DNA of 52,254 nt. Source: Girardia tigrina (lineage: Eukaryota). The position numbers and the translations under genes were made by a program. This document shows positions 1 through 51,770 of this stretch, piece after piece. The notes below the pieces were generated by a model. The model saw nothing but the letters and a program-made list of their open reading frames with translations. It did not search any database and had not been told where the DNA came from. Numbering within the stretch: position 1 is the stretch's first letter; each line of letters begins with the position of its first letter. The DNA is taken from assembly GCA_001938485.1 (NCBI GenBank), contig MQRK01174037.1, positions 1-52,254 on the forward strand, written 5' to 3'.

Positions 1-300
1 CATTCGTAAGAGTAGCTTCTGCCATGTCTACCAGCAAAAATAAAATTATGTAATTATAACACACAAAAGGATATGGTGTCTATATTACGTGTTCTCAAAT
101 AGCTGCCGCACCCTGTATAAATTGAAAAGAATTATTATTAGGGCACGGAATTTAATGACCTTAAAAATCAAAAAAATGACTATTTTATTTCCTCTCTTTC
201 CGAGTGAGATATTATTTTGTTCTTCCCCTCTGCCAATAGAGTCGCCACCGTCACCAATCCGCCGCAGTCACACCACTACGCAACCAACTCTGTTATCAAT

Positions 301-301
301 G

Positions 302-346
<45 letters not shown>
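301..346. repeat. (ATT)n microsatellite
   Basis: About 14 perfect ATT units. Explains the poly-I and poly-Y runs in ORFs 89..442 and 217..639. Confidence 0.95.
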
Positions 347-347
<1 letters not shown>

Positions 348-500
348 TGTCAAAAAGAAGGATGGATTGCTCAGAATTTGCGGGGACTACAGTGGAGTCA
401 TCAATGTCCCCATACCTGACTCATACCACATTCCGCTTATAACCGACATTCTCCAGCGTTTTACAAGATGTAAGGTATTCTTTTCACTTGACTTGAGCAA
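346..500 (+). mobile_element. Ty3/Gypsy reverse transcriptase N-terminal fragment
   Basis: Translates IVKKKDGLLRICGDYS...DSYHIPLITDILQRFTRCKVFFSLDLS, the canonical gypsy RT start (VxKKDGxxRxCxDY...YPxP...FSxLDL). Near-identical inverted copy at 1161-1312. Confidence 0.9.
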
Positions 501-900
501 CAGGAGAATATTTAAACGCATCGTTACATACAAAGAAAGGATCAGACTGGGAGGAACTACTACCGGAAATAGAATTCACATTAAACGCAAATTTTCAGAA
601 AACAATAGGGAAAAGCCCAGCGGAAATTATATTCGGTAAGAAAATATACAGAGAAGGATGGCATAGTCAACACATAAAGTTACAGCAAGAAAAAGAAGAC
701 ACAACAACCAGAAGAAATTTCGAAATTGGAGATGAAGTACTAGTAAAGGTGGAAACAGGGATAAAGAGTAAAGATAAATATGAAGTGCCGTATAAAGTGG
801 TAGAGAAAACACACAACAGAAGGTATAAACTAATAAATGAAGATGGAAGAATTTTAGATCTAAACGTGGAAAAATTTCGAAAATTCTTAAAGAAGGGGGA
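501..900 (+). mobile_element. Gypsy integrase C-terminus with polypurine tract
   Basis: GDEVLVKVETGIKSKDKYEVPYKVVEKTHNRRYKLINEDGRILDLNVEKFRKFLKKGG is a GPY/F-like tail. It ends in the purine tract aagaagggggga immediately before an LTR start. Confidence 0.8.
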
Positions 901-1066
901 TATGAGGGGTTAATTTAAATTTGCAACTCGCTAGAATAATTTATTTTTTTTAATATAAAAGGTAAAATATTTTAATGTTTATATGCTTATTAAATATTTT
1001 AAAATTAAAAATGATATAATAAATTTTGGTGTTAAAAAAATGAATTCTGATATTGATGTTGCAACC
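901..1066 (+). mobile_element. 3' LTR, internally deleted and truncated
   Basis: Starts tatgaggggttaatttaaattt right after the PPT. Homologous to the solo LTRs at 1939-2474 and 25560-25906; shares ...gaattctgatat-ga-gttgcaacc with the latter. Confidence 0.8.
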
Positions 1067-1860
1067 CATTGGCAAAAGCATGTACTAGTAGAGACCGAAC
1101 GGCGTAGTGACGGCGGTTTCCGGGATAGATGCTTCATCCATTGAGATCTGGTGGTACGCCTTGCTCAAGTCAAGTTAAAAGAATACCTTACACCTTGTAA
1201 AACGCTGGAGAATGTCGGTTATAAGCGGAATGCGGTATGAGTCAGGTATAGTGACATTAATGACTCCACTGTACTCCCCGCAAATTCTGAGCAATCCATC
1301 CTTCTTTTTAACTATCTGAAGTGGAACGTCCCAAGGGAAATAGCAGTGCTTGACGATTTCAGCTGCCTGTAATCTCTGGAATTATTCTGCGGCTTGTGGT
1401 CGGATCGCTTGTAACAGTTCCCTACACCATTGATGAACTGGAGCACACAAGTCATTGGCTTGTCAGCATTCGCGTCATCGAGAAGGCCTGGAAATTGCTC
1501 GTGAATCTGTCTGGTGATGTTGGCTGCAAGTGTCTTCATGGAACGTTCTGTTGTGGTCGTCAGCGTGACGGCTGGTTCCTGTTGGTGGTTGTTGTCAATG
1601 TTGTGATGGCCACTAGAGTTTGAGCGATTTAGTCGGCCAAGATCCTGAAGAGCTCCAAGAAAGTGGCCTCAAGAATGGGTTATGTAACCCTGGCAATGAT
1701 GAATTTCCAAGTTAAATGATTTATCCATATTAAATATATGTTGTAATAAGATTAGCGGTTCGACCTGAACCGTCCCGGCAGTAAGTATGACCGATAGAAA
1801 ATTCGGTTCGTATGGTCACCGAGTCGACCATTCAGCTCGTGGGGCGTCATTTGGGACGTC
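1066..1860 (-). mobile_element. Gypsy pol fragment (linker plus RT), decayed
   Basis: Minus strand reads IVKKKDGLLRICGEYSG...LDLSKAYHQISMDEASIPETAVTTPFGLY*YMLLPMG. The upstream ORF 1312..1539 resembles the protease-RT linker. Confidence 0.85.
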
Positions 1861-1938
1861 AAGTGCATTTACTTAAATTAAAAATATTATTTTTAATTAT
1901 TAAAAAAACAGCTATTTTAAAATAACTAATGTTGTTTT

Positions 1939-2474
1939 TATGAGAGGTTAATTTAAATTTACATTTCGCCACAATAATTTATTATTTTTTTAATTTAAAA
2001 GTTAAAATATTTTTAAGTTAATATACTTATTAAATATTTTAAAATTAAAAATGATTAATAAAGTAAACTATTAAAAAATCAAATACTTATTTAAAAATAA
2101 AAAATGTTTTTTAATGAATCTATTAAATATCTTAAAATTAAAAATGATAAGAAAACCCTTAAAGAATAAATACTTATTTATAAACTAAAATATTTTTACA
2201 GCCATAACAATTTATATATTTTAATAGAATGTATGAAACAATTTTAAATAAATTTTTAGTTTTAATGTGAAAATTATTTAATAAATTTAAAGTTTAAAAT
2301 TAGCAAGATTTTAAAAATTGAATCGAAAAGAATTTAATAGATTAATTCTGGCGATATAATTGAATTAACAGAAAATTGTTTAAATATGTGAATTGTTGTT
2401 ATAATAAATATTGTGGTGTTAAATTATGAGGTCTGAATTTGATAATAATGAAAGTGGCATAAACGCTACTTACA
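1939..2474 (+). mobile_element. Solo LTR with 5-bp TSD
   Basis: tatgagagg...cttaca flanked by GTTTT on both sides (1934-1938, 2475-2479). Similar to 901-1066 and 25560-25906. Confidence 0.75.
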
Positions 2475-3469
2475 GTTTTTTTAATCAGCATTATTAAACA
2501 AAAAATTCAAAAATCGTGTTTTCTTGTTTTTAATAGTCGATGGATGAAATTTAAACATTTATAAATTGCATCAAATTTTACAAAGCCTAAATTAAAATCT
2601 TTTTTTGGGAACTTGTAAAATGACAAACTCGTAGGATAAGTTAACTACGTTCATCTTCCTAATATTTCCTTCCACATTAAAAAGAACCAAAGATTAAATA
2701 CTTTTCTTATTTTAAAATTACTTCAATTTAGATTTTACACTGTTTAATGCAGAAAACCATCTCTCATCCGACATATTCCTATCTGAAATCGATAATTATA
2801 CCCGAATTAGTATTTCATCGTTTGAAGAACTAGATAAAAAATTAACATCTATTGAAAACACTAACAATTTCAAACTGTTGGAAGGATTTTTGTAAAAATA
2901 GGAAAATTCTTTACACTTGATAAATTTAACTGTATCTTTTATAGAATAAGTAGTAATTAAAATTTATCTATGTATTTCTTGCATATTATCAAGATGCAGC
3001 GAATAATTAATTTACTTATTATTAAACTTAAAAACCAACTTGAACGAATCCTCTATTTTATAGGTCTTAGATATAGCTCGATAGTAAAATATGCCATGGA
3101 TAAAATTGTTATTAATTAAAATTTAAAATTACCAAGCAAAATCTTATTGATTTTAGAAATTACAAATTCATGTATTTTGAAATTCAAATTGTAAATAAAA
3201 AATAATACCCATTTTAATTATATTTGCAAAATGCAATACTCATGCTATATGGCTTACGTGTTACAAGATTTTCATAAACCATTTACAAGAATGTAGAAAA
3301 AAAACAATCAAAATGTAAAGAAGAAAGAATAATGTTTATACATTTCATGGTACCGAGTGTCTAAATTCGTCGTTTGATAAAAAGTATGTACATTTAGTAG
3401 GCCTGTTGTAAGTTCTTAAATTTGAGTGGACCCTCAAACGATTATTAAAGCTAAAAAATGAAAAAAATA

Positions 3470-8848: not shown

Positions 8849-10937
8849 CAGGGGTCGGAAACATTTGGCTATGTGGGGCCGGATTGCGTCTTATGAGAGA
8901 GTGGCGGGCCAGAGGATTTTTAAAAAAATATTATAAGAAAAAGCTTACCAAAAAGCTTGTTTTCAAATTACTTAAAATCAATAAAATAATGAAAATTCTT
9001 AAAAATATTTTAGTTCTACTTATAAACAAATAAGTTAACAAAAGACAATGAATTTTAAAAATCTTTTGTACTCAAAAATCCAAAATTTGAATAAGTAATG
9101 GGAAACTTGATGTTCTTTGTCACATAAAAGCTTCTCAATATTGGCTGTCGATGCCAACAACAAAACATTATCTAAATTACTATAGGTTAATTTTGTTCTC
9201 AAATTGTTTTTAGTATATTTCAATTTTGAAAATAATTGCTCACATTGGTAAGTACTTCTAAACAAAGATGTTCACAAGGTTAGGATACTTCTTATTATAA
9301 TAAATATATTTCGAATAAAAATCAAGAAAAGATTCATGATCGTAGTGAAATTTTGATTTCATTAAGTCGTCACGTTACATTTAAATCATCTAAATTTGAA
9401 AGCATTCTGATACAGTACACACTTCCACGTCAAAAGGATGAACAAAAAACTGGAATTCATCTTCGTGCAAGCAAAGGTCAGTAAAGCGAGATGAGAACTC
9501 ATTCCTCAGATCTTTGATCATATTCACAAATATTTTTGGATTTTGTGGTTTTCATTCTGGAATGGATGGAAAATGTGCATAATTTTCATGTTGAAGCCGG
9601 TATTCCCACAGGTTTAGTTTTCTTTCAAATACAAGATTATTACCAAACATTTTATTTATAAGTTGAGCTTTACCTTGCGCAAGTGTAAATTAAAGTTATT
9701 TAAATGACGTGTAATGTCCACAAAAAATGTCAAAGATACAAGCCAATCAAGAGAGTGAAAATGTGATGCATCCACAGATTTGCTTTGAAGGGAAATTACA
9801 ATTTCAATATGTAATTTTAATATTCTTTTAAGAATTGAACCTCTGCTTAGCCAGCGAACATTGAAAAAATGGACTAGGTCTCCATAATCAGCCTCTCTTT
9901 CCACCAAAAATTGCCTGAGTTGGCTATGATTTAATCCACGAGATATGATCAGATTAACAACTTTTACAACAATGTCCATTACTTTCTTCATTTTCAAAGA
10001 TTTTACACATAATGCTTCTTGATAAATAATACAATGAATTTTCACCAGCTTCTGAAGAATTCCAAAACTTTCCATGCGTTCCTGTAATAGTACAACAAAT
10101 CCTTTTTTATTTCTAACCATTGCCGGTGCTCCATCAGTTGTGATGCCAATTAGTTTTGAAATATCTAAGTTCATTTTCGATATAACATTAATCATTACTT
10201 CAAAAATGTCTACTCTAGTTACTGTATCCTTCAAATCAATTAACTAAATAAATTCTTCAAAAACATGGAAACTCAATGTCCCTCCTTGCTATAAGCTGAG
10301 CAGTATCATTTAAGTCTGTACTTTCATCAACTGCAATTGAAAAATATTGGAATTTGTTACAGGCCTTCGTTAAAGAACTTTTAACATCTAATGACATCTC
10401 TTCAATGCGTCTTGTGAAAGTTCTAGCAGATAAACTTATGGAATAAAATAAAGACTTTTTTCAAAACAAAATTATCCGCCACTGTCATTAAACATTGTTT
10501 AACTAATTTACCATCCATAAACGGTTTCATCTTTTCAGCAATAAGTCTTGACACTTCATAGCTTGCACGGATATTAGTTTCATATTCACTTTTTTTATTC
10601 GTAAAAAATGATGTTTGTTTTTCTAACTTTGATTTCAGCTGCTTAATTCATCTCTTCTTGTTTCTCCAGTAATGTTTTTAAATTTTCAAATGATGGATCA
10701 TGTGATGGCGCCTGATATTTGCCACTTTATTCACAGCAACTTTTTCAAGGCAAATAAGACATGTTGGCTTTCCGTTTTTCTCGATAAAAAATAATCAAAC
10801 GTCCAAGTATCTTCAAAATTCGAGATTCGCTTCAGAATTCGAGACTACTTTCCTGATCTTTAATATTAAAACAATTTTTGTTTATTAAATTTATTATTGT
10901 CGAAATCTGTTCGCGGGACGTAGGATGCCGACTCCTG
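8849..10937 (-). mobile_element. Full-length decayed hAT transposon (Buster/Charlie/SPIN group, GTF2IRD2-like transposase)
   Basis: TIRs caggggtcggaaac and (rc) caggagtcggcatc. Perfect 8-bp TSD AATTAAAA (8841-8848, 10938-10945). Motifs FSIAVDESTD, ITTDGAPAM, IHCIIYQEAL, VRWLSRG, STYQCEQLFS. Frameshifted. Confidence 0.95.
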
Positions 10938-29199: not shown

Positions 29200-31520
29200 T
29201 ACACTCCCCCATGATCTCCAGATAAAATCCCATAATCGTCCAGATATTGAGGAGGTTTCTGCACCCGCACCGGTCGTTCAGCGGAATCTGTAGCTACTTC
29301 TTGCGTTGTCGGTCCACTCATTTCGTTTTCACTGTCTGAAATGCGATCATCGGAATCCACTAACATCAGTTGTCGATTGTCCACTGCTCTCCTGATGTGG
29401 AATATATGTCTCGTGATTCCATCGTCGTTCAGCTCCACCTCAACTGCAGACTTCAATGATTTAATTACATGCGGCCCCGCCCATGGTTCATTGCATTTCC
29501 CGCCGACTCTCAAATAAACATTCTCACCAATGCTGAACGGCTTTTCTTCGTAGCGTCATACTCATCATTTGAGATGCATTCCGAGATGAATTTGCATTCA
29601 ACCTGATGCTCATCTCGAATCATTGGTAGTGGGGACTTGGCATGGAACATCAATTCATAAGGCCCCGCATCCCGGTGACCAGTTGTACTGTTGTAACAAA
29701 ACACGCATTCACTGATCGACTTTGCAGATCTCGCCGCCATTGTCTTAATAGTGCGGTGATTTATCTTGCACATCCCATTCCCTTGATGGCGATAGGCTGA
29801 GGTGAACCCTTGCTCGATTCTCCATTTATCTAGCAACCGTCTCATTGGGGCACTTCGGTAGACAGCCGCATTGTCGGAAAAGAAACGTTTCGGCGGTCCA
29901 AATTCAGAGCATACGCTATCTATATGCCAACCTATTTCCTCGGTGGATTCACTGCGCAAATTTCTCCAAATACAAAATCTTGTTGCTGAATCCACTATGG
30001 TCAGATACGCGACACCGTTGAAATAAGTCCCATCGCTATAAAGTTGGTACCATACCTTGTCAGTTGACAATTGCCCATGTCGATACTCCATTCGTGGGGC
30101 TTGACAGATCTTTGAACACTCAACACATTGCTTGATAACTTCTTTAACTTGACTCGACTTTATTGCATTAGACCAATATTTTTTCCCCTACAGTTCACTC
30201 GTCCTGTCGACTCCAAAGTGACAGATATCATGATTTTTCTTGATCTCATCATCACTTGGATACTGATTTACTTCAATGGCGTTTACTTCCACTTTCCTGT
30301 TTAGCCATTGCTTTGGAACCCTGGTCAAACAATCTGCCATATTCAATTGAGATTTCACCAATTCCAGTTTTTCTTGATCTTTCAACTCTCTCATGATATC
30401 GAGTCTTCGCCGTACCAAATGTTTAGATAACGTGCTGGTTCTTGGGTTGTGTGTATTCTTGAATACTGTCATGAGCCATCCATACACTGTTGCTGAGTCC
30501 GTCATCAGCTTGAACTTATGAAAGCCCCAGGTTATTGTCAAGTTTATTCCCCTTATGGCCGCATTCAGTTAACTCATATGGCTTGTATCGTCTTCTTTCA
30601 TTAACCAAGCAGCGTCTTCAACGATATTACCGTTAACGCACAGTAGTACGCCCACTGCTATACTACTTGCAACTGTCCAAACGACAACATTATTATTGCA
30701 ATTTACCACCCACTTGTCTGTTGCTGGATCTCCATCAATCCTCAGCCTTTGACAAATTTCATTAACTTTCTCTATGATGTCTTTTGGAACTAATTCATCC
30801 CAGCCTATCTTGTATTTTGTGGTTAATCTCATGGCCTATCCACTCCCCCAAAATTCCATGTACTTCTCTCCTCGTTGCTTTCTCAAGCTCCCTAGTTACG
30901 AGCTCTTGGTCTCTTTTTACTGCAAATTTCTTTGTACATTCAGTCCAATCACCATGACATCTTTGGCTAAGCCAATCCGTTCTATGGGTTTAGACTCCAA
31001 CACAAACCGGCAAAAAATTCCTACTAGATCCTCTGCATTACAAGAACTTTCCGCAAAGATCACGACATCAATATAACCAGAAGCAGTTATCATCTACTAT
31101 TCCTTGATAATCGTTTCAACTATTCTTGACATGACCTTTGGCGCAATGGATAGACCAAACCCTAACCTGGTCATCACATACACTTCGCCATTCCACATAA
31201 CCGCCTGATATTTCCACAAATCTGGAGCCACCCTTACTTATAGACAAGCCTTTTTTAAATCCATTATAGCGGAGTTGGGTCCCAATTTTCTCCACTCCCG
31301 TAATCGTGACTGGCAACTGGCATAACTACTGCCCGGATAGCTATGAATTTGTTCGTTCAGTAACCTGTAGTCTAATATCAGTCATATTCGTGTCGTTTTG
31401 CCTTTGACTTGCCACACTCCGATCAACGGTATCATGTTACGAATCTTCCCGTTTCGCTTTTCATCCCACTTTATCAGAACACCTTCGCTTACCCACTCAT
31501 TCACTTCATCTTGAAATGGT
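29200..31520 (-). mobile_element. Ty3/Gypsy pol (RT-RNaseH-integrase), decayed, with PPT
   Basis: RT: LDYRLLN, DLKK, MTRLGFGLSIAP, YIDV. RNase H: VWTVASSIAVG, TDSATVYGW, NMADCLTR. Zinc finger HDICHFG. rve core: LTIVD, SDNAAVYRS. PPT gggggag then TGT at 29203. Confidence 0.93.
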
Positions 31521-31639
31521 TCTTAAAATTATTTGGAAATAAAATTATTTGAAAACTAAATATTATTTTTAAACCGAATTATATAAATTTCTAAGTTTAA
31601 AAATTAAAATGGTTCAAAAATAAGATAAATGTATTATTT

Positions 31640-32105
31640 CAGAAGAAAGAGACGCCTTCAATTCATTTAACGCCCACCAGCTGCGACAGACAAGAAAAGC
31701 CGTCCAATGGGAAAATGCGACGCTGATTCATGGCAATGCGCCAGTCCATGTATCCAGGGCAACTACCACTTTCCTGAAGACGAAACGTTGCCATCCTCTT
31801 CACCAACCCCCATACTCTCCTGACACTAACATTTTCAACCGCCACATACTCCCTCTCCTGGAAATGCGTCGCAAAAATATCGTTTTCGTTGATTCTCATT
31901 CCTTGGAGACCATCCTGGAAGATTCCAAGGAGAGTATGAGTAGTGAGATCATTAGATATGAGTTTGATAAACTGAAACACCACTACCAGCTGATAATTTA
32001 GCTTTATGGAAATTTTGTGTAATTATATTTTTTAATGTCATTGGTGCAAAGTTATTTCTTTATTATCTGAATTTGTTAAAACGATCTTTTTGAAAGGACA
32101 ATCTG
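31640..32105 (+). mobile_element. Mariner-like transposase 3' half and right end
   Basis: TLIHGNAPVHVSRATTTFL...QP(P)YSPDTN..., C-terminus YQLII*LYGNFV*. Ends ...ggacaatctg followed by TA. Confidence 0.75.
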
Positions 32106-41160: not shown

Positions 41161-42752
41161 TCGTATTTATCGGACTATAAGTCGCACTAGCGTATAAGTC
41201 GCATATTTTTGTGACTTGAAAACTTAAATCAAAAACTTATTTTAAATTATGCAAATGAAGTAATCATTAAATTTAAATTAATATTATTTTTGTTTTATTA
41301 AAATAATTTGAATTTAAAATTCACGTTAAAAATGAAGAAAACAAGAAGACCGTTTACGGTCGAAAGAAAATTTGAAATTATTGCTTATGCTGAAAAAGAT
41401 GGTAACAGAGAAGCAGAAAGAAAATTCAATATAAATGAAAAAAACATTCGGGATTGGAGAAAATCGAAAAATCTTTTAAACGTAATGCCGAAAGAAAATA
41501 AAGCAAAAAGAGGGGGATTTGCACATTCGCGCGATTTAGAAAAGGCCGTTAACAAGTATGTAATTGAGAAAAGGGAGAAAGGTTTTAAAGTTTCTACAAT
41601 TGATATCAGATTAACAGCGAAAAAAATGGCAAAATATGATTTTAATATAGAAAATTTTAAAGGAACGAATGGTTGGTGCATAAGATTTATGAAAAGAAAT
41701 AATTTAAGCATGAGAGCAGTAACTTCAGTCGGACAATCGTTGCCAGCTGATTGAGAAGAATAACAGAATCATTTTTACTTTTTATTAAAGGTAAAAAGAG
41801 AGATCAATTTGAAGCATCTTGGGAATATGGATGAATTTTCTGTTAGTTTCGATATTCCGGATACAAGGACAGTTGATGAAAAAGGAAAAAAGATATTCTG
41901 ATCAAAACAACCGGAAATGAAAAATATAATTTTACAGTTATATTAACTGTAACTGCCGATGGAAAAAATGTAAACCAATGGTGATATTTAAAAGACTAAC
42001 AATACCCAAAGAAAATTTTCCAAAAGGAATTATTGTTGAAGTCAATAAAAATGGATGGTCAAATAGTGAAATAATTGAAAAAAGGAATACAAAAAATTTC
42101 GATAAAAAGAAATTATTGCTTTTTTAAGTCAAAATCACTTTTAATATACGATTCTGCTAGATGTCATCTTACTGAGGAAGTTAAAAATGAAGTCAAAAAA
42201 TATTCTGAACTTGCAGTGATCCCTGGTGGCCTCACTAAAAGCTTTCAACCACTTGATCTATCAGTTAACAAATTGTTCAAATCTAAGCTAAAGATATATT
42301 GGGAAAATTGGATTATCAATGGTTGTCACATTTACAACAAACGGGGAAAATCAAAAGAGCGACATAATCAGAAATATGCGATTGGATTGTTAAAAGCTGG
42401 GAAGATGATATACCACAAAGTATTAAAAATGGATTTAAGAAAGAGGGATTCAAACTTATGATGAAAATATCGAAGGTAATGATGATTCAGAAATTGAAAC
42501 TGGAAGTGAGGATAAAGATTTACAAGAAATCCAAACGGAATTTTTGCACATTTTCGAAACATTTGAAATAATAGATGAAGATTTAGATGGATTCGAGGAA
42601 ATAGAATAATTTAAAATAAAATTATTGGTTTTGTTTCTATATATTGATCTTTTTATTTTTATATAAGTCACACACGCGTATAAGTCTAACCATTTTTTTA
42701 ATTTTCATACTTTTTTTCATATAAGCCGCGGCTTATAGTTCGATAAATACGG
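41161..42752 (+). mobile_element. Full-length decayed pogo transposon (BrkDBD, CENP-B HTH, DDE_1)
   Basis: TA-flanked TIRs (t/c)cgtatttatcg(g/a)actataag. Motifs FTVERKFEII, FKGTNGWCIRFMKRNNLSMR, GNMDE, VTADG, LLIYDSARCH, IPGGLTKSFQPLDLSVNK and an acidic tail. Frameshifted. Confidence 0.95.
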
Positions 42753-43301
42753 TATAATACCAAAAAATCATTTTACAATACATATTTAAAAGTATTAATG
42801 ATACTACATTAAAAAGACTTTTTTTTAAAAAACCACGCTTATATTTGTTTAGTTTCAAAAATAAATTTAAACCAATCAGTAACCTACAAAATACTTTGAA
42901 GCCATATGCTATCTCCAGAGTTTCTTACTCCTTTACAAAAAGATTTTAAGATAAGTGAAAAATTATTGTTAGGTTGGAGCAAACGAATAATATGTTTGGA
43001 GTATTTATTATATTTTCGTATTAATTTTATCTTACGCATACTTTCAAAATAAAAACCCATGTCTATTTGGGGAAACTTTGAGAGGATAAAAATATCAAAA
43101 CCAAATACAAACCAATGGGCCTGGACAGGAAGCCGTGTCTCCGCGATATTTTAGAAAGAGAAGAATTGTTTTTCATTGTGCACGTCAGTTGAAAAGTGCT
43201 TTTCATTTTATTGAACAAAATATTCAGCGGAATCCCATCTCGTTTACGCAATTCAAATGTGGCGATATGCCAACCGAGAAAATGATGACACGCATCTTTA
43301 T

Positions 43302-43603
43302 CATAGATCAACCGCACAATAAACGGGTAATTAATCGCCACCAAAATGTTGTGCTCCATTTGTGTTCGCAATCGATCTCTCAATTTTAATGAAGCTTTCC
43401 GCAACACTTTCATCGCATAGAGATTTCCGGAATTAATACCTTTAGTTTTTCGAACTAAATAGACCTGGCCGAAAAGATCCTTGACCTAAAATTCTCAATA
43501 ACTGAAATTGTGACGGATCAACTTTTTCATCTTGATTCACTAATTCCGTCACATTGACCTCAGTAATCAACTCATGATTGTCAAAATTAAAAACAAAATC
43601 CAT
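43302..43603 (-). pseudogene. RPS6KA: p90 ribosomal S6 kinase N-terminal kinase lobe, single-exon frameshifted fragment
   Basis: [75 protein letters not shown]. +1 frameshift in the T-run at about 43472-43475. Downstream kinase exons not found. Confidence 0.9.
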
Positions 43604-44532: not shown

Positions 44533-45940
44533 GGTACCACCGTTATGGTCCCAGACCGTTATGGTACCGCCGTTTTGGTACCACCAAAATTATTATACTA
44601 CGTTACATTATACTAATATTCGTAAATTTTATTTCAAAAAATAACTAGTAAATCAAAATAAATTTTTTAATCTATTCTTTATGCGGACGGAACTCTACTT
44701 GGTCAACATAATATTTTACCGAATTCACTGACTATATGAAAAATTTTCATTGTTATTTGAAAATTTCACAATTAAAAGTGAAAGATTATGTATTTAATAT
44801 GAGAAAATATCAATTAAATATGAAAAATTATATATTAAACAGTTTTTTTAAGGTTTCCAGCTGGATGTAGCCTAAGAAAATGTGGGTGTACAGTAAAACA
44901 AATTTATTTTTACTCAAAAATTGTTACATCAGGCATGCACACTGGATTTAAAGGGTTAAAAACAAAAGAATGTTCTATACTTATTAAATAAGTATACAAT
45001 TATAAATGGCCTTGTGTAGGAGCGTGTATGTGTGAGAGGGAGAGAGTGTGGGTGTTATAGCAGTGTGTGCATTTTTATTGAACCAATACTTTATCTATAA
45101 ATAGCTAAATTTTTTGGTGTACATCAACAAAAGTTGGGTGTACATTGTAAACCCAAAATGGTCTTAAAAACCTTGTATCAAATATGAAAAAAAATCTTAA
45201 TTTATTATGCAAAAGGACTCCCAATGTAAAATTTTTATTCTGTTATTTAAAATTCTTCCTTGCTGGTAAGTTGAATTACAAATGTGTATTTTTAAAACAT
45301 TTGTCATATTAAATTGATAATTTTTGGGGGCACGACAATTAAGTCTCGAAAATTAAAATTTAAAAAAATGGAAAATTCGGGTAAATTTTAGAAAAGAATT
45401 TAATTTAATAAAATATAAAATAAAAGAAAAAATATAAACAAACAATCTGACTTAATTTTTTGATTATAAGGAATTAGTTAATTTTCATTTCGCTTACTGA
45501 GATGTAAATAATTAAATTTTATTTAAATTATTTTTTTACTTAAATTTTTCATTTTTCTAAAATATACACGAATTTTTTATTTTTTTAAATTTTACTTGAA
45601 TATTTCATTTTTTTCTAAATTTTAATTGAATTTTTAATTTTTTAAATTTTAATTTCCAAGACTTAATTTTCCGAGAATTAGTTTTCCGAGACTTAATTTT
45701 CGAGACATAATTGTCCTGATCCGATAATATTTCATATTACATATATATTTTTTATATTTGAATATTTTAAATACATATGTACATATACATATATTTTAAA
45801 TACATATTTATTTCATAATTTAATTAAAAAATTTTTGAAAAAAATTGCCTATTTCGTGAATTACACAATATTTTAGAAATAAACTTACCAAGGACCAAAA
45901 CAGTGGTACCAAAACGGTATGAGACCAAAACGGCGGTACC
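44533..45940. mobile_element. MULE-type non-autonomous element with modular ~50-bp TIRs
   Basis: ggtaccaccgttatggtcccagaccgttatggtaccgccgttttggtacc is inverted at 45892-45940, built of 15-bp subunits. No clear TSD. Confidence 0.75.
45326..45723. mobile_element. Nested MULE-type MITE with 9-bp TSD
   Basis: TIRs gg-cacgacaattaagtctcgaaaattaa and (rc) ggatcaggacaattatgtctcgaaaattaa. Flanks ataattttt and ataatattt (one mismatch). Confidence 0.8.
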
Positions 45941-46397
45941 TATATAGATAAAGACAACTCGGATGCAGATGATAAACATTTGACCATGAAGCATGATAGC
46001 AGTAATATCGTAAATAATTTTCGTTGAGACGAAAGAGTTAAAAAACTAATCATCAAAATATTTTATTGAAGGATCAAACTTAATTTCAGAATTTAATTTA
46101 CGTGCAAGAGACAAGTAAAATGTTTTAAAAAAGAAGATTTAAAAAACTTAATTTGCTTTTTTATTTTGCAATAACAACTTTCTAATAGCGAAAAAATAAT
46201 CGGGATCACAGTATTGTGTATTGATTTATTCTGTAGTACCTATCAATAATAACAATCAGTAAACGTTTTATTTTTAGATATTGTAAAGAATATCAGATTA
46301 AGGTTACATTAGCATAATGAATGAAGTAAAATTGAAAATTATTAGCAAAATTAAAAATGATAGTGCTTTTGGTAGTTAAAAAATAAATTTAGTAGAA

Positions 46398-48030
46398 AAA
46401 TTGTATTTTAAATTCGTAAATTGTATTTTAAAAATTAACAATTGCATTTCAAAAAATTAAATTGTATTTCAAAGAATAACATTTGCATTTCAAAAAATAA
46501 AAATTGTATTTCAAAGAATGACAAAAATATTTCATAATTTTTTAATTTTAATTTAATTTTTACATTTTAAATTTCTAAGGTGCTTTTTGATATTATTTTC
46601 AGTTTAAATTTAATCTTAAGTTTTAGAAATTAATCTATAAGACAAATGCAGCATTTGTCAGATTTCATTGTTACGGAAGCCGGTTGTGAGATATAACCCA
46701 TGCTGTCATCTCTTACATGATAAGTGCTGTGATGTCTTATTCACCAATGGGGAAGCAACTTGCCGAAACTGTCGCTCACTGCTTACAGGATGTGAAGTAA
46801 TTAAGAGGCAAACGTATGCAAGATACTCCGATAAGGAGCGTCGACTCATTGTGGAGGCCTCAAACAGGGGGATGATTGGATCCCACTGGCAGAATCCCTT
46901 GGCGTGCGGTACAATACAGCGTATTCATGGGTACGTTCTGGTGAGGCCAAATCAAAACACACAGCATTCATCATCCTTTTTTGAGGCTGCTCTGAGTATG
47001 AGTGACATGTCTGTGGGTTTATAAAATAAAATTTTTGTTTGACTTACCAAATTTTGTCTTTGTTTATTTTTTGTTTTTGTATTATGAAAGAATTAAAAAT
47101 ATTTAATTATTGAACAAAGTTCAATTATTTTTGCGTTTGTATTAAGAAGAGATGACATGATTTGATTTGTCAGCGATTAGATTTGGAGTTGTAGGAAGCT
47201 TTATTTGTTAAGAGTCCCAAATATATAAATACATATTAACGTTTATTGGTAATTAGATCTTTCTCTTTTTTTATGGATCTTCAGTAGCTAGAAGATGACG
47301 CTTATTATTTTTTTTAAAATAAGAGTGTTTTTCACTGGAAGGAAATTGTAATATTTATCTTGATTATAAGGTTAATTCAGTTGTAAGGTGATTTTTAAAA
47401 ATTTTTATTCAAAATAAAAATATTTAATTATTGAACAAAGTTCAATTATTATTTTACATTTTCTTATTTCACTAAATTCTTTTATAATTAATTTTTCTTT
47501 TTTCATATTTAAATATTTATAAATCATCATAAAAATGCAAAATAATTCAGTGATTACAATGCAGTAATTTTCATTCGAATTAAGATTTTCATATGACAGA
47601 AGAGAAAACTTGAAACATAAATAAACAAAACAAGATGATAATTTTAACTTATTTTCCGTAATATATGATTTACTGAAGCTATATAATATTAGATTGCGTT
47701 TAAGAACAAATTTATTTATTCAAAATTGTTATGACTAATAAATTGTCGTTTATGTTTTTCTAATACAGTGAAGATCAAATACTCAAGATACACCTAAATA
47801 AATTTTGTGTCTGATCAGTACAATTTTTATTTTTTGAAACACAAATGTTAATTTTTGAAAAACAATTATTATTCTTTGAATATAATTTTTATTTTTTAAA
47901 ACACAATTATTAATTTTTGAAATACAATTGTTATTATTTTTAATACAATTTACGAATTTAAAATACAATTGTTATTATTTAAAATAGAATTCATGTATTT
48001 GAAAGTCAATTGTTATTCTTTGAAATACAT
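46398..48030 (+). mobile_element. Internally deleted Tc1/IS630-like element encoding RING-H2 plus HTH, with repeat-array TIRs
   Basis: Inverted arrays of ~21-bp units (46398-46520 versus 47818-48030). Coding region 46641-47024 holds a RING-H2, then YSDKERRLIVEASNRG/DDWIPLAESLGVRYNTAYSWVRSG, joined to QHSSSFFEAALSMSDMSVGL*. Confidence 0.75.
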
Positions 48031-48592
48031 GTTGAAATGGTGCATAAGTTGATGAAAACAAAGTTATGTCTTCAAAATGTACAAAAAGTCTTTATTTATA
48101 ATTTACTTATAATTCATAAAACAAATTTATAAATATGAAGTTAAAAAAACAATATTTATAAACTCTTGTATAATATGATTAAAAATATTGAAAAATCTTC
48201 AGTCAATAATTATCGAAAAAATCAATTTATTAATAATTTTCAGTGGTATTTACTTGACAATTAACTGTTTGAAATGCTTTTTGAAATTTTTGTACATGTA
48301 TTTACAAGCGGTCAAAAAATCGTACGCGTTCGAAAATGAGATATCTCTGTTCTGTCATATTTGTACTGCTTATTTAATTAGCCCCATATGTATCGCATAC
48401 AGTTCGTACAGACAGACGATCTGGTGCACAAATATTAACGACATATTTTTGTAATATTATTAAATATCAAGAAATTACAAAATAATAATTTTTGTTTGAT
48501 GTGCCTAAATTTGTATTTGATTTTACGCCCATTTTGGAGATCAAATTACAATTACATTGTTTTTAACACAATAAAAAAGAAATTATACATTT

Positions 48593-49889: not shown

Positions 49890-51770
49890 CATTAGTGGGC
49901 CTCCCATCTCTTTCAATAGTATTGAGCCTAAGGCTCTTTAGAGGGTCCACCCAAACTAAAATCCTTAAGGGCCCCCGTTAGGCCTCCTACGAGGTCAGTG
50001 GCTTTCCAGTGACGAATGACCAACCATGGAACTTGGTACCATGGCCATATATACCTTTAGCTGTTACGGTGGACGCGTAACAACCGCGAAATGGACACTG
50101 AAATTTTCCTTTTGCCTTAATGTCGGGTAATCGGTAATCTCTGTGTGTTTCTCCAATGTCTTGTTCGTTCTGGGTCCCCGGCATACCCACAGTTGCGTCC
50201 AGAAACTGAGGGTTCGATTGGATTGTTGTCAGCTCTTCCTCTTCTTCTCTTACCAAGTTGTCGTCTCTCTGGGTGTTGGATTGCTCTGGTTCTTCTCGGT
50301 GATTCTTCTATAAGTGGATTTTTAACCATCCTATGCAGTTGTATTCCTTTGGACAGTGAATGTATTTGTACTCCTTTCTTCTGTCGTGGCTGGGTTGTCT
50401 TCTGTCTCTGTTTTCTCGATATTGGCTCTGCTCCGATATGATCCCGCCGGAGATGTATGTTCAATTCTTTGATCTCCGCGAATTGATTATAGCAGTCTTC
50501 CATTGGGCAGCTGTGTTCTTTGAGTCGTGGGAGAATTAATCGCATCGTGTTCTCATCTCCTCTTCTCTCCACTTTCTTTAGCTTGATGACTCTCTCTATT
50601 CTTGCCTTTGTTATTAGTAGGATTTCCTGCTGAATGTCTTTACAAAAATCATTAATGCTATACTGGTCTCCTAAGAGCGAGTGCATGTCCACCTTGAGAC
50701 ATTCATCCAGATGTTGCTTCCGTCATCCGCTTATCTTCTTCCCTCCGATAAGTTCGCATTTTTAGATTTGATGTACCACTCCTTGACATTCATTCATCTC
50801 GATCTTCACATTGTGAATAATTCTTCTTAATCCAATGGATAACTCGTCCATTCTAATCCTCTCGGCCTTCGATATTCAAAGTGTTCTTCTGGTACACAAA
50901 TTGTGAAATGCTTTAAGCTTCTTCACGTGCTCTACGTTTGTCCTCCAGTTTTCACAACTGTAGTATACCACAGAGAATACACAACTTGTGATGATGTTCT
51001 TTTTGCTTCGGAGGGACAACTTGTTGTTCTTCAATACTGGTCTAATCGTTCTCAGCTTTATCGATCCTTTATTGAATCTGGCTTTGATGTCTGCTACTGA
51101 TCCTCCTCTCTTCTCGATGATCGAACCAAGGTGGCAGAACTCATCCACCTATTCTACACAGGCACTCAGTTCGTTCCCTGCCGTTGCATATCTGGCTCCA
51201 TTGAGATTAAGGATATTCGTCTTCCAAATGTTGATCTTCAGCCCTATTTTCAGAAACACAGTATTTAGGTACGTTAGGTTTTTCTCTGTTTCCGTAATCC
51301 TCATCCAGTAAACACAGGTGATCAGCATATGCCAGCCTGTTAACAGCTAGTGTTTCTCCGTCTTTACATTTGACATTCACACCTCCACTTAGTCCTGATT
51401 GGATAGCAGTTTTGATTGCGCAGTCGAATACTAGGTTGAATAGTAAGGGACCGAGTACACAACCTTATCGGACTCCTTTCTCCATTGTGAAAATGCTCTT
51501 ACCAACACTTCCTGTAAATCCTTCATGAAAATCCATTATCATGCTTAATATGCGACCCTGTACTCCCATTCCTTGAAGGCAGTCCCAGAAAACTTTCTTG
51601 GGCACGCTGTCGAATGTCTTTTCAAGGTCGATAAATATTGCATACACGTTGATATTGCGGTATCTTTCCTGTTCTTGCACCTTTCTTGTTCCTCTTTTGG
51701 GCCTGAATCCAAATTACCAGTCGTCCAGTATCCTCTCAAGGTGTGGCATTAGTCTGTTTGCAATGATTTG
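49890..51770 (-). mobile_element. 5'-truncated RTE-like LINE with C-terminal C2H2 zinc fingers
   Basis: FGFRP, FIDLEKTFDSVP, GVR*GCVLGPLLFNL, LAYADH, GLKIN..KT, FCHLGS, YSCENW. Tail has CPMEDC..HLRRDH and CPFRGC..GHGTKFH. GC-rich 3' UTR at 49890-49986. Confidence 0.92.

Follow-up and report, generated by a model that had tools for sequence, protein, structure and literature searches.

The window, a 52,254-nt stretch of the Girardia tigrina genome, contains a dead transposon copy with an internal deletion; it belongs to a widespread DD32E family of the IS630/Tc1-mariner group, in which the transposase carries a RING finger. The left subterminal array of ~21-bp repeats lies at 46391–46535 on the + strand (period 21, 5.1 copies at 46419–46524); the outer ~55–60 bp of this end, including the CACCATTTCAAC tip, are missing, and the match to a longer copy in the same genome (L052) begins at base 57 of that copy. 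Alignment to other copies locates the decayed gene start at 46629–46640 (+), with ATT (46629–46631) where other copies have ATG, and a premature TAA (46638–46640) just ahead of the RING. The RING-H2 (C3H2C3) finger, detected by Pfam and by its ligand pattern, occupies 46647–46772 (+) and translates as C-x2-C-x14-C-x-H-x2-H-x2-C-x11-C-x2-C, with eight of eight zinc ligands. Homolog alignment assigns the linker and first transposase helix-turn-helix (HTH) to 46773–46958 (+), where the RING frame continues to ...VEASNRG and then passes into the HTH frame through a one-base loss at the G run 46867–46871. The C-terminal QHSSSFF...SVGL* is reached by a jump at 46958–46960 (+), the junction of a ~2.5-kb internal deletion that skips L052 positions 623 to 3172, and the last ~20 transposase codons with the TAA stop (47022–47024) occupy 46960–47024 (+) by alignment to copies. 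The deletion extends from the last part of exon 1 through exon 2 and both introns into the DDE exon, most of which is gone; its junction is unique, spanned by one of 41 matches, namely the window itself, and it is thus rejected as a subfamily mark. A 3′ noncoding element body common to other copies follows (47025–47818, +; 83–90% identity to L051, L060, L070, and L096). Repeat and tip searches place the 21-bp subterminal array of the right end, together with its terminal inverted repeat, at 47819–48042 on the − strand: 10.2 units at 47819–48029, inverted relative to the left array, and the tip at 48031–48042, which reads GTTGAAATGGTG on the forward strand and CACCATTTCAAC on the other. This right tip is followed by CA, rather than the TA found elsewhere in the family, and the tip motif is absent at the left end. 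With its ATG mutated to ATT, a stop codon ahead of the RING, and no left tip, the window copy is unable to make the protein.

The original prediction, made from this DNA alone, had recognized the eight-ligand RING-H2, the frame jump to the transposase C terminus, and the inverted ~21-bp arrays, and all three hold at the positions given above. The ligand pattern occurs once in the window and in none of 100 block shuffles, which rules out a chance origin. The proposed frameshift is real as a one-base loss, but the lost base is A, as the aligned copies show, and not the G that had been restored; the ATT start, the TAA before the RING, and the true right end at 48031–48042 had been overlooked. Pfam zf-RING_2 scores the window peptide alone at 22.4 bits, below the cutoff of 27.3, and the intact homolog P0001 at 31.7 bits. 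Elsewhere in the window, we observed further remnants of mobile elements: an integrase core (rve) (29510–30187, −), a separate DDE_3 fragment (31624–32001, +), and a pogo-like HTH_Tnp_Tc5 plus DDE_1 (41302–42461, +). By eye, frames at 208–913 (+), 9656–10243 (−), 43063–43485 (−), and 50117–50722 (−) look like retroelement, hAT-like, protein-kinase, and non-LTR fragments; no Pfam match to any of the four was as good as E 0.001. Upstream of the element, positions 45310–45739 form another, separate small inverted-repeat structure, which contains 15-bp tandem units.

The 1.43-Gb G. tigrina genome was searched with the RING peptide, giving 132 matches among 150 candidates scored, and 80 stretches around RING and DDE matches were collected. 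RING and DDE lie on one element in L051–L055, L059, and L060, and several copies carry RING, HTH, and DDE_3 domain on a single element; the DDE_3 domain, deleted in the window copy, is matched by Pfam in copy L007 at E 1.8e-8. These longer copies, which link the RING to a DDE_3 domain, bear out the earlier view of the locus as a deletion derivative of a RING-bearing family, and a one-off RING capture is rejected by retention of the RING in the 132 matches and in cross-species homologs. One long copy, L051, measures 3,846 bp between TA-flanked ends. In the long copies, exons of 384 and 112 nt precede the DDE exon, and the introns that follow them, both GT-AG, measure 1,701 and 53 nt, respectively. 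A majority sequence, derived from 61, 4, and 15 de-duplicated rows for exons 1, 2, and 3, respectively, becomes a 401-aa open frame with no internal stops when spliced at the two GT-AG introns; its domain order is RING-HTH-HTH-DDE, its D-to-E spacer is 32, and it is identical to the outside protein P0001 at 235 of 401 positions, and the alignment runs ungapped through the two splice junctions. The two introns occupy identical positions in L164, which represents an older sister subfamily (~76% identity); intron 1 is ~50 nt there (1436–1485) vs. 1.7 kb in the younger subfamily (L052). In sequencing run X1, tentatively RNA, one contig skips exactly the 53-nt intron, a skip present in none of 25 genomic matches to that region; the same run also contains deletion-type junctions known from DNA. 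Because X1 is only guessed to be RNA, the splice-like skip is a hint, not proof, of expression. Among the sequencing runs listed as containing the family, none was labeled as RNA.

Copies in the G. tigrina genome decay neutrally. They differ from the majority by a median of 5.7% in the RING (55 copies), and an intact ATG-RING is kept in one of 29 RING-only rows and two of 22 longer rows. A comparison of RINGs, of the kind suggested with the original prediction, detected no purifying selection among these copies, with ratios of 0.89 in the 29 RING-only rows and 0.97 in the 22 longer ones, and none of the copies among the stretches collected has a gene that is intact throughout. At least 14 loci (L086, L096, L103, L111, L127, and others) share one junction and form a RING-only deletion subfamily, which consists of RING codons joined to the 3′ region and has been amplified in nonautonomous form; L086, L087, and L096 span about 1.2–1.3 kb, and the subfamily is abundant in run X1. 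Selection on the RING-only copies is rejected by their ratio and their single intact member. In a second compact derivative subfamily (L059/L060, L053, and L054), intron 1 and exon 2 are gone and the DDE exon is kept; L059 and L060 represent a single insertion found at two related loci, next to an exon with a resemblance to CAAX proteases.

The family ends are CACCATTTC with TA flanks, mostly CTAG, plus 21-bp arrays, and the element reads CACCATTTCAAC...GTTGAAATGGTG from end to end. Across 57 flanks, which include a few duplicated loci, T is at −2 in 54, A at −1 in 55, and C at −3 in 39. Tenzen and Ohtsubo reportedly found in 1991 that IS630 prefers TA within CTAG, a preference that matches the CTAG-biased flanks of the RING family. 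Long repeat arrays are found at element ends in both hosts examined. L072, an intact, intronless metagenome element, ends at the right in an identical tip and carries an array of 21-bp period and 113 bp of perfect inverted repeat, features that make it look young.

With the DDE part as the query, we identified 12 longer proteins, eight of them annotated with zf-RING_2 and DDE_3; the RING peptide alone as the query gave no longer homologs (six candidates). A nine-member profile (A4) detected 195 proteins at E ≤ 1e-10, and the full RING pattern is present in 46 of the 120 matches listed, 38 of these 46 being at least 385 aa long. DDE_3, zf-RING_2, and HTH_32 each match nine of nine members of A4, HTH_32 being found in nine of nine homologs at E ≤ 0.01. 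The domain-profile check proposed earlier thus gave the expected result, and intact ~400-aa RING-HTH-DDE_3 proteins in other organisms substantiate the full architecture that had been predicted. Its encoding in a single open reading frame, also anticipated, holds for the intronless homologs outside; in this genome, two introns interrupt the gene. Named RING-bearing hosts are the beetle Zophobas morio (intact homolog KAJ3659040.1) and the flies Rhagoletis pomonella, Rhagoletis zephyria, and Lucilia cuprina (intact homolog XP_046806359.1), and Callosobruchus contains DDE-only fragments of the family. Among 14 metagenome loci, two (L071 and L072) contain the complete gene as an intronless sequence. 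Of the 144 new rows that an exhaustive search of 50%-identity representatives contributed, 13 carry the RING, all as partial proteins. In the ESM Atlas, RING plus HTH as the query produced nothing usable and P0001 only leads below 0.9, all of them DDE_3 clusters without a listed RING family; in viral contigs, 44 pattern matches included no confirmed relative.

The D-to-E spacer is 32 in 39 of 41 RING-bearing proteins of at least 330 aa. We constructed a quick tree on the DDE domain alone, comprising 112 rows, with nine rows of short DDE dropped. The RING-bearing rows and the G. tigrina copy fall within a 68-row clade (SH-aLRT 85), except for two RING-bearing rows outside it that adjoin a DD33E clade of seven rows without a RING; the rest of the tree is mostly DD35E and also RING-less. 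Several RING-less rows inside the 68-row clade are truncated gene calls (P0012 vs. P0025, P0065 vs. P0298, and P0067 vs. L071), and further RING-less rows, e.g., P0003, P0007, and P0063, are also found there. RING distances track DDE distances with a rho of 0.63, vs. 0.65 for HTH1 (0 of 2000 permutations). The RING follows the DDE domain as closely as the HTH does. The overall pattern fits a putative single RING capture followed by joint inheritance, possibly with RING loss in the DD33E clade. Three RING-less relatives (P0140, P0144, and P0160) carry other long N-terminal extensions that resemble MADF, THAP, and zinc-finger domains by eye and are possibly domesticated genes or mis-joined gene models.

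An AlphaFold model of a family transposase (mean pLDDT 70.9, pTM 0.48) contains two three-helix units, the HTH pair, and matches Mos1 (E 1e-13) and Sleeping Beauty (E 2e-9). The RING family shares the DDE_3 domain and fold, two N-terminal HTHs, and TA-flanked inverted repeats with Mos1, Sleeping Beauty, and ISY100/IS630, as expected of an ITm element, and differs from these reference elements in adding an N-terminal RING-H2, DD32E, two introns (in this host lineage), and 21-bp arrays. That a transposon family with the RING-HTH-HTH-DDE architecture exists is virtually certain. The earlier Tc1/IS630 assignment stands as to the DDE_3 type and fails as to Tc1 itself: Tc1, Gambol, and HvSm are all DD34E, with a spacer of 34 vs. 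32 in the RING family. Hiker (DD35E) has a spacer of 35, a value found mostly in the RING-less neighbors of the clade, and, because many RING-less neighbors in the DDE tree are DD35E, Hiker may be a sister group of the RING clade. Hiker, Gambol, HvSm, and Dici are likewise ITm clades outside Tc1 proper, from which the RING clade is set apart by its spacer of 32.

A word search found "RING" absent from the main text of PMC7325037, PMC8533490, and PMC13469147; the family motifs were not found in the non-sequence supplements of PMC7325037 or in the supplements of PMC8533490, although gapped alignments can hide motifs, and none of the searched words is present in PMC7010608. The sole literature match to "DD32E" was an unrelated clinical paper, and no ITm transposase with a RING was found in the literature searched, a body that leaves Repbase, Dfam, the Hiker paper, and subscription journals, any of which may include members, outside its scope. 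A RING-bearing DD32E clade with intact members is apparently undescribed. A RING N-terminal to a DDE core is also found in RAG1 and Chapaev of the Transib superfamily, the RAG1 RING being a working E3. These proteins belong to another superfamily with another catalytic core and have a Chapa domain before the RING; no Transib/RAG1-type core with a Chapa domain was found in our family, which matches DDE_3 in Pfam and Mos1 and Sleeping Beauty in fold. In 2015, Kapitonov and Koonin reported no RING fingers in other known transposable elements beyond Chapaev and RAG1 (PMC4411706). Because the RING is otherwise reported to be confined to RAG1 and Chapaev, RING-DD32E would represent an independent fusion.

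The transposase begins six residues ahead of the RING. Mean pairwise identity among 39 full-length proteins is 0.47 for the RING, 0.55 and 0.45 for the two HTHs, and 64% for the DDE domain, and the eight zinc ligands and start Met are invariant in 38 aligned sequences, full-length members being about 50% identical. In proteins with a complete RING, Ile or Val is found at C1+2 (57 of 59), Pro at C7+1 (54 of 59), and Arg at C8+1 (57 of 59). The best PDB sequence matches of the family profile are the RING domains of Arkadia, ARK2C, and RNF38 (Arkadia E 1.7e-9), and the C8+1 Arg falls opposite the arginine of the Arkadia CPICR motif; counting residues identifies this arginine as the "linchpin" R983. 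PMC9954413 describes R983 as needed for ubiquitin transfer and the helix tryptophan W972 as contacting E2 and needed for E2 binding. At the position of W972 in our family, Trp is outside the seven commonest residues, and Ile or Leu is present in 37 of 59 proteins. Some active RING E3s lack the helix Trp. The transposase RING shares its C3H2C3 ligands, an LPCxHxFH-like core, and CPxCR with the linchpin Arg with the RING-H2 E3s Arkadia/RNF111, ARK2C/RNF165, RNF38, and RNF126; it differs from them in being without the helix Trp, in having a basic M-x-R loop, and in being fused to a transposase. Predicting the complex of a RING from L007 and a UBE2D-like E2 from the same genome, without alignments, yielded a score of 0.11 (mark 0.34), which speaks neither for nor against E3 activity. 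E2 genes are greatly expanded in the G. tigrina genome: no fewer than 150 intronless UQ_con reading frames are present, frequently with several on one contig (e.g., C249919, C244919, and C212210; L145–L156).

We consider it reasonably probable that this is a DD32E family whose transposase starts with a conserved RING-H2 acting at the transposon ends as a tethered ubiquitin ligase; the chance that the RING has E3 activity is somewhat better than even. The HTH pair would bind the end repeats and the DDE domain would cut and paste into TA, following the established biochemistry of Tc1/mariner/IS630 elements. The RING may have been captured once from a RING-H2 E3 gene and retained by selection on active elements, and at the transpososome it would recruit an E2~ubiquitin conjugate and ubiquitinate the transposase itself or nearby chromatin, perhaps tuning enzyme level, excision, or repair as the RAG1 RING does. 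We favor a tethered E3 because the Ile/Val, Pro, and linchpin Arg are kept, the best matches are RING-H2 E3s, and RAG1 provides a precedent: according to PMC8374863, the RAG1 RING has itself and histone H3 as ubiquitination substrates, keeps RAG1 levels down, and makes recombination more efficient. Weighing against this, Arg, Pro, and Ile are common in RING folds and could stem from the donor gene. The missing helix Trp, the basic RING with its M-x-R motif, the lack of purifying selection among the G. tigrina copies, and a clade support of SH-aLRT 85 with two RING-bearing rows outside count on the same side. The existence of close DD33E and DD35E relatives without a RING shows that it is dispensable for transposition as such.

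The main rival sees the RING as a noncatalytic module, like the piggyBac cysteine-rich domain, for binding chromatin or the subterminal 21-bp arrays or for dimerizing the transposase; it draws on the basic charge and invariant M-x-R of the RING and on the binding of end repeats by the cross-brace finger of piggyBac. That domain is likewise a cross-brace zinc finger of a transposase, and the piggyBac ends also have internal repeats. It is C-terminal and PHD-like, and the finger of the RING family is N-terminal and RING-H2; PMC8086355 describes the piggyBac domain as binding repeated DNA at the ends and that of PiggyMac as binding histone H3. The RING has a net positive charge, mostly +2 to +4, and a family-specific M-x-R motif comprising a near-invariant surface Met at C2+4 (74 of 76 RINGs) and Arg at C2+6 (67 of 76), and the missing E2-contact Trp and the long end arrays of both hosts point the same way. 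Against a binding role stand the retention of the linchpin Arg and loop Ile and Pro (54–57 of 59 proteins) and the fact that, among solved sequences, RING-H2 E3 ligases come closest. The protein also already has two HTH domains, the usual end-binding module according to PMC2170065. On balance, we judge the binding module unlikely.

If the tethered RING is an E3, it could instead be aimed at host defense, with the transposase or RING-only transcripts ubiquitinating piRNA or heterochromatin silencing factors in trans. The E3 hallmarks of the RING agree with this, as does the RING-only subfamily, with its one junction at many loci and its abundance in run X1, but the RING-only copies decay neutrally and the protein has no substrate-binding domain other than the transposase itself. 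This is a sub-case of the tethered-E3 explanation, with its weight counted inside it, and we regard it as improbable. That the RING is a passenger, a captured host gene fragment carried without function, is suggested by its neutral decay among G. tigrina copies and the amplified nonautonomous copies that retain only the RING, yet it is very improbable and largely refuted by the cross-species record, in which the invariant ligands and start Met and a RING conservation equal to that of the HTHs contradict it, and dead copies are all expected to decay neutrally whatever the domain did in the active element.

Returning to the tethered E3, its fullest form, in which an undescribed, widespread DD32E clade, intact-looking in insects, would be a second independent RAG1-type "E3 on a DDE transposase" that ubiquitinates itself or cut-site chromatin, is put forward tentatively, as slightly less than an even chance. 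The window copy itself is a nonfunctional relic that points to a robust clade. The family adds a recognizable clade to the ITm group, marked by DD32E, CACCATTTC ends, and a CTAG preference, whose members genome annotations now file as "RING-type domain-containing" or uncharacterized host genes. As a second RING-transposase family, with dozens of intact 400-aa members, it would offer a small, testable model for the question, also posed by RAG1, of why cut-and-paste enzymes keep a ubiquitin ligase.
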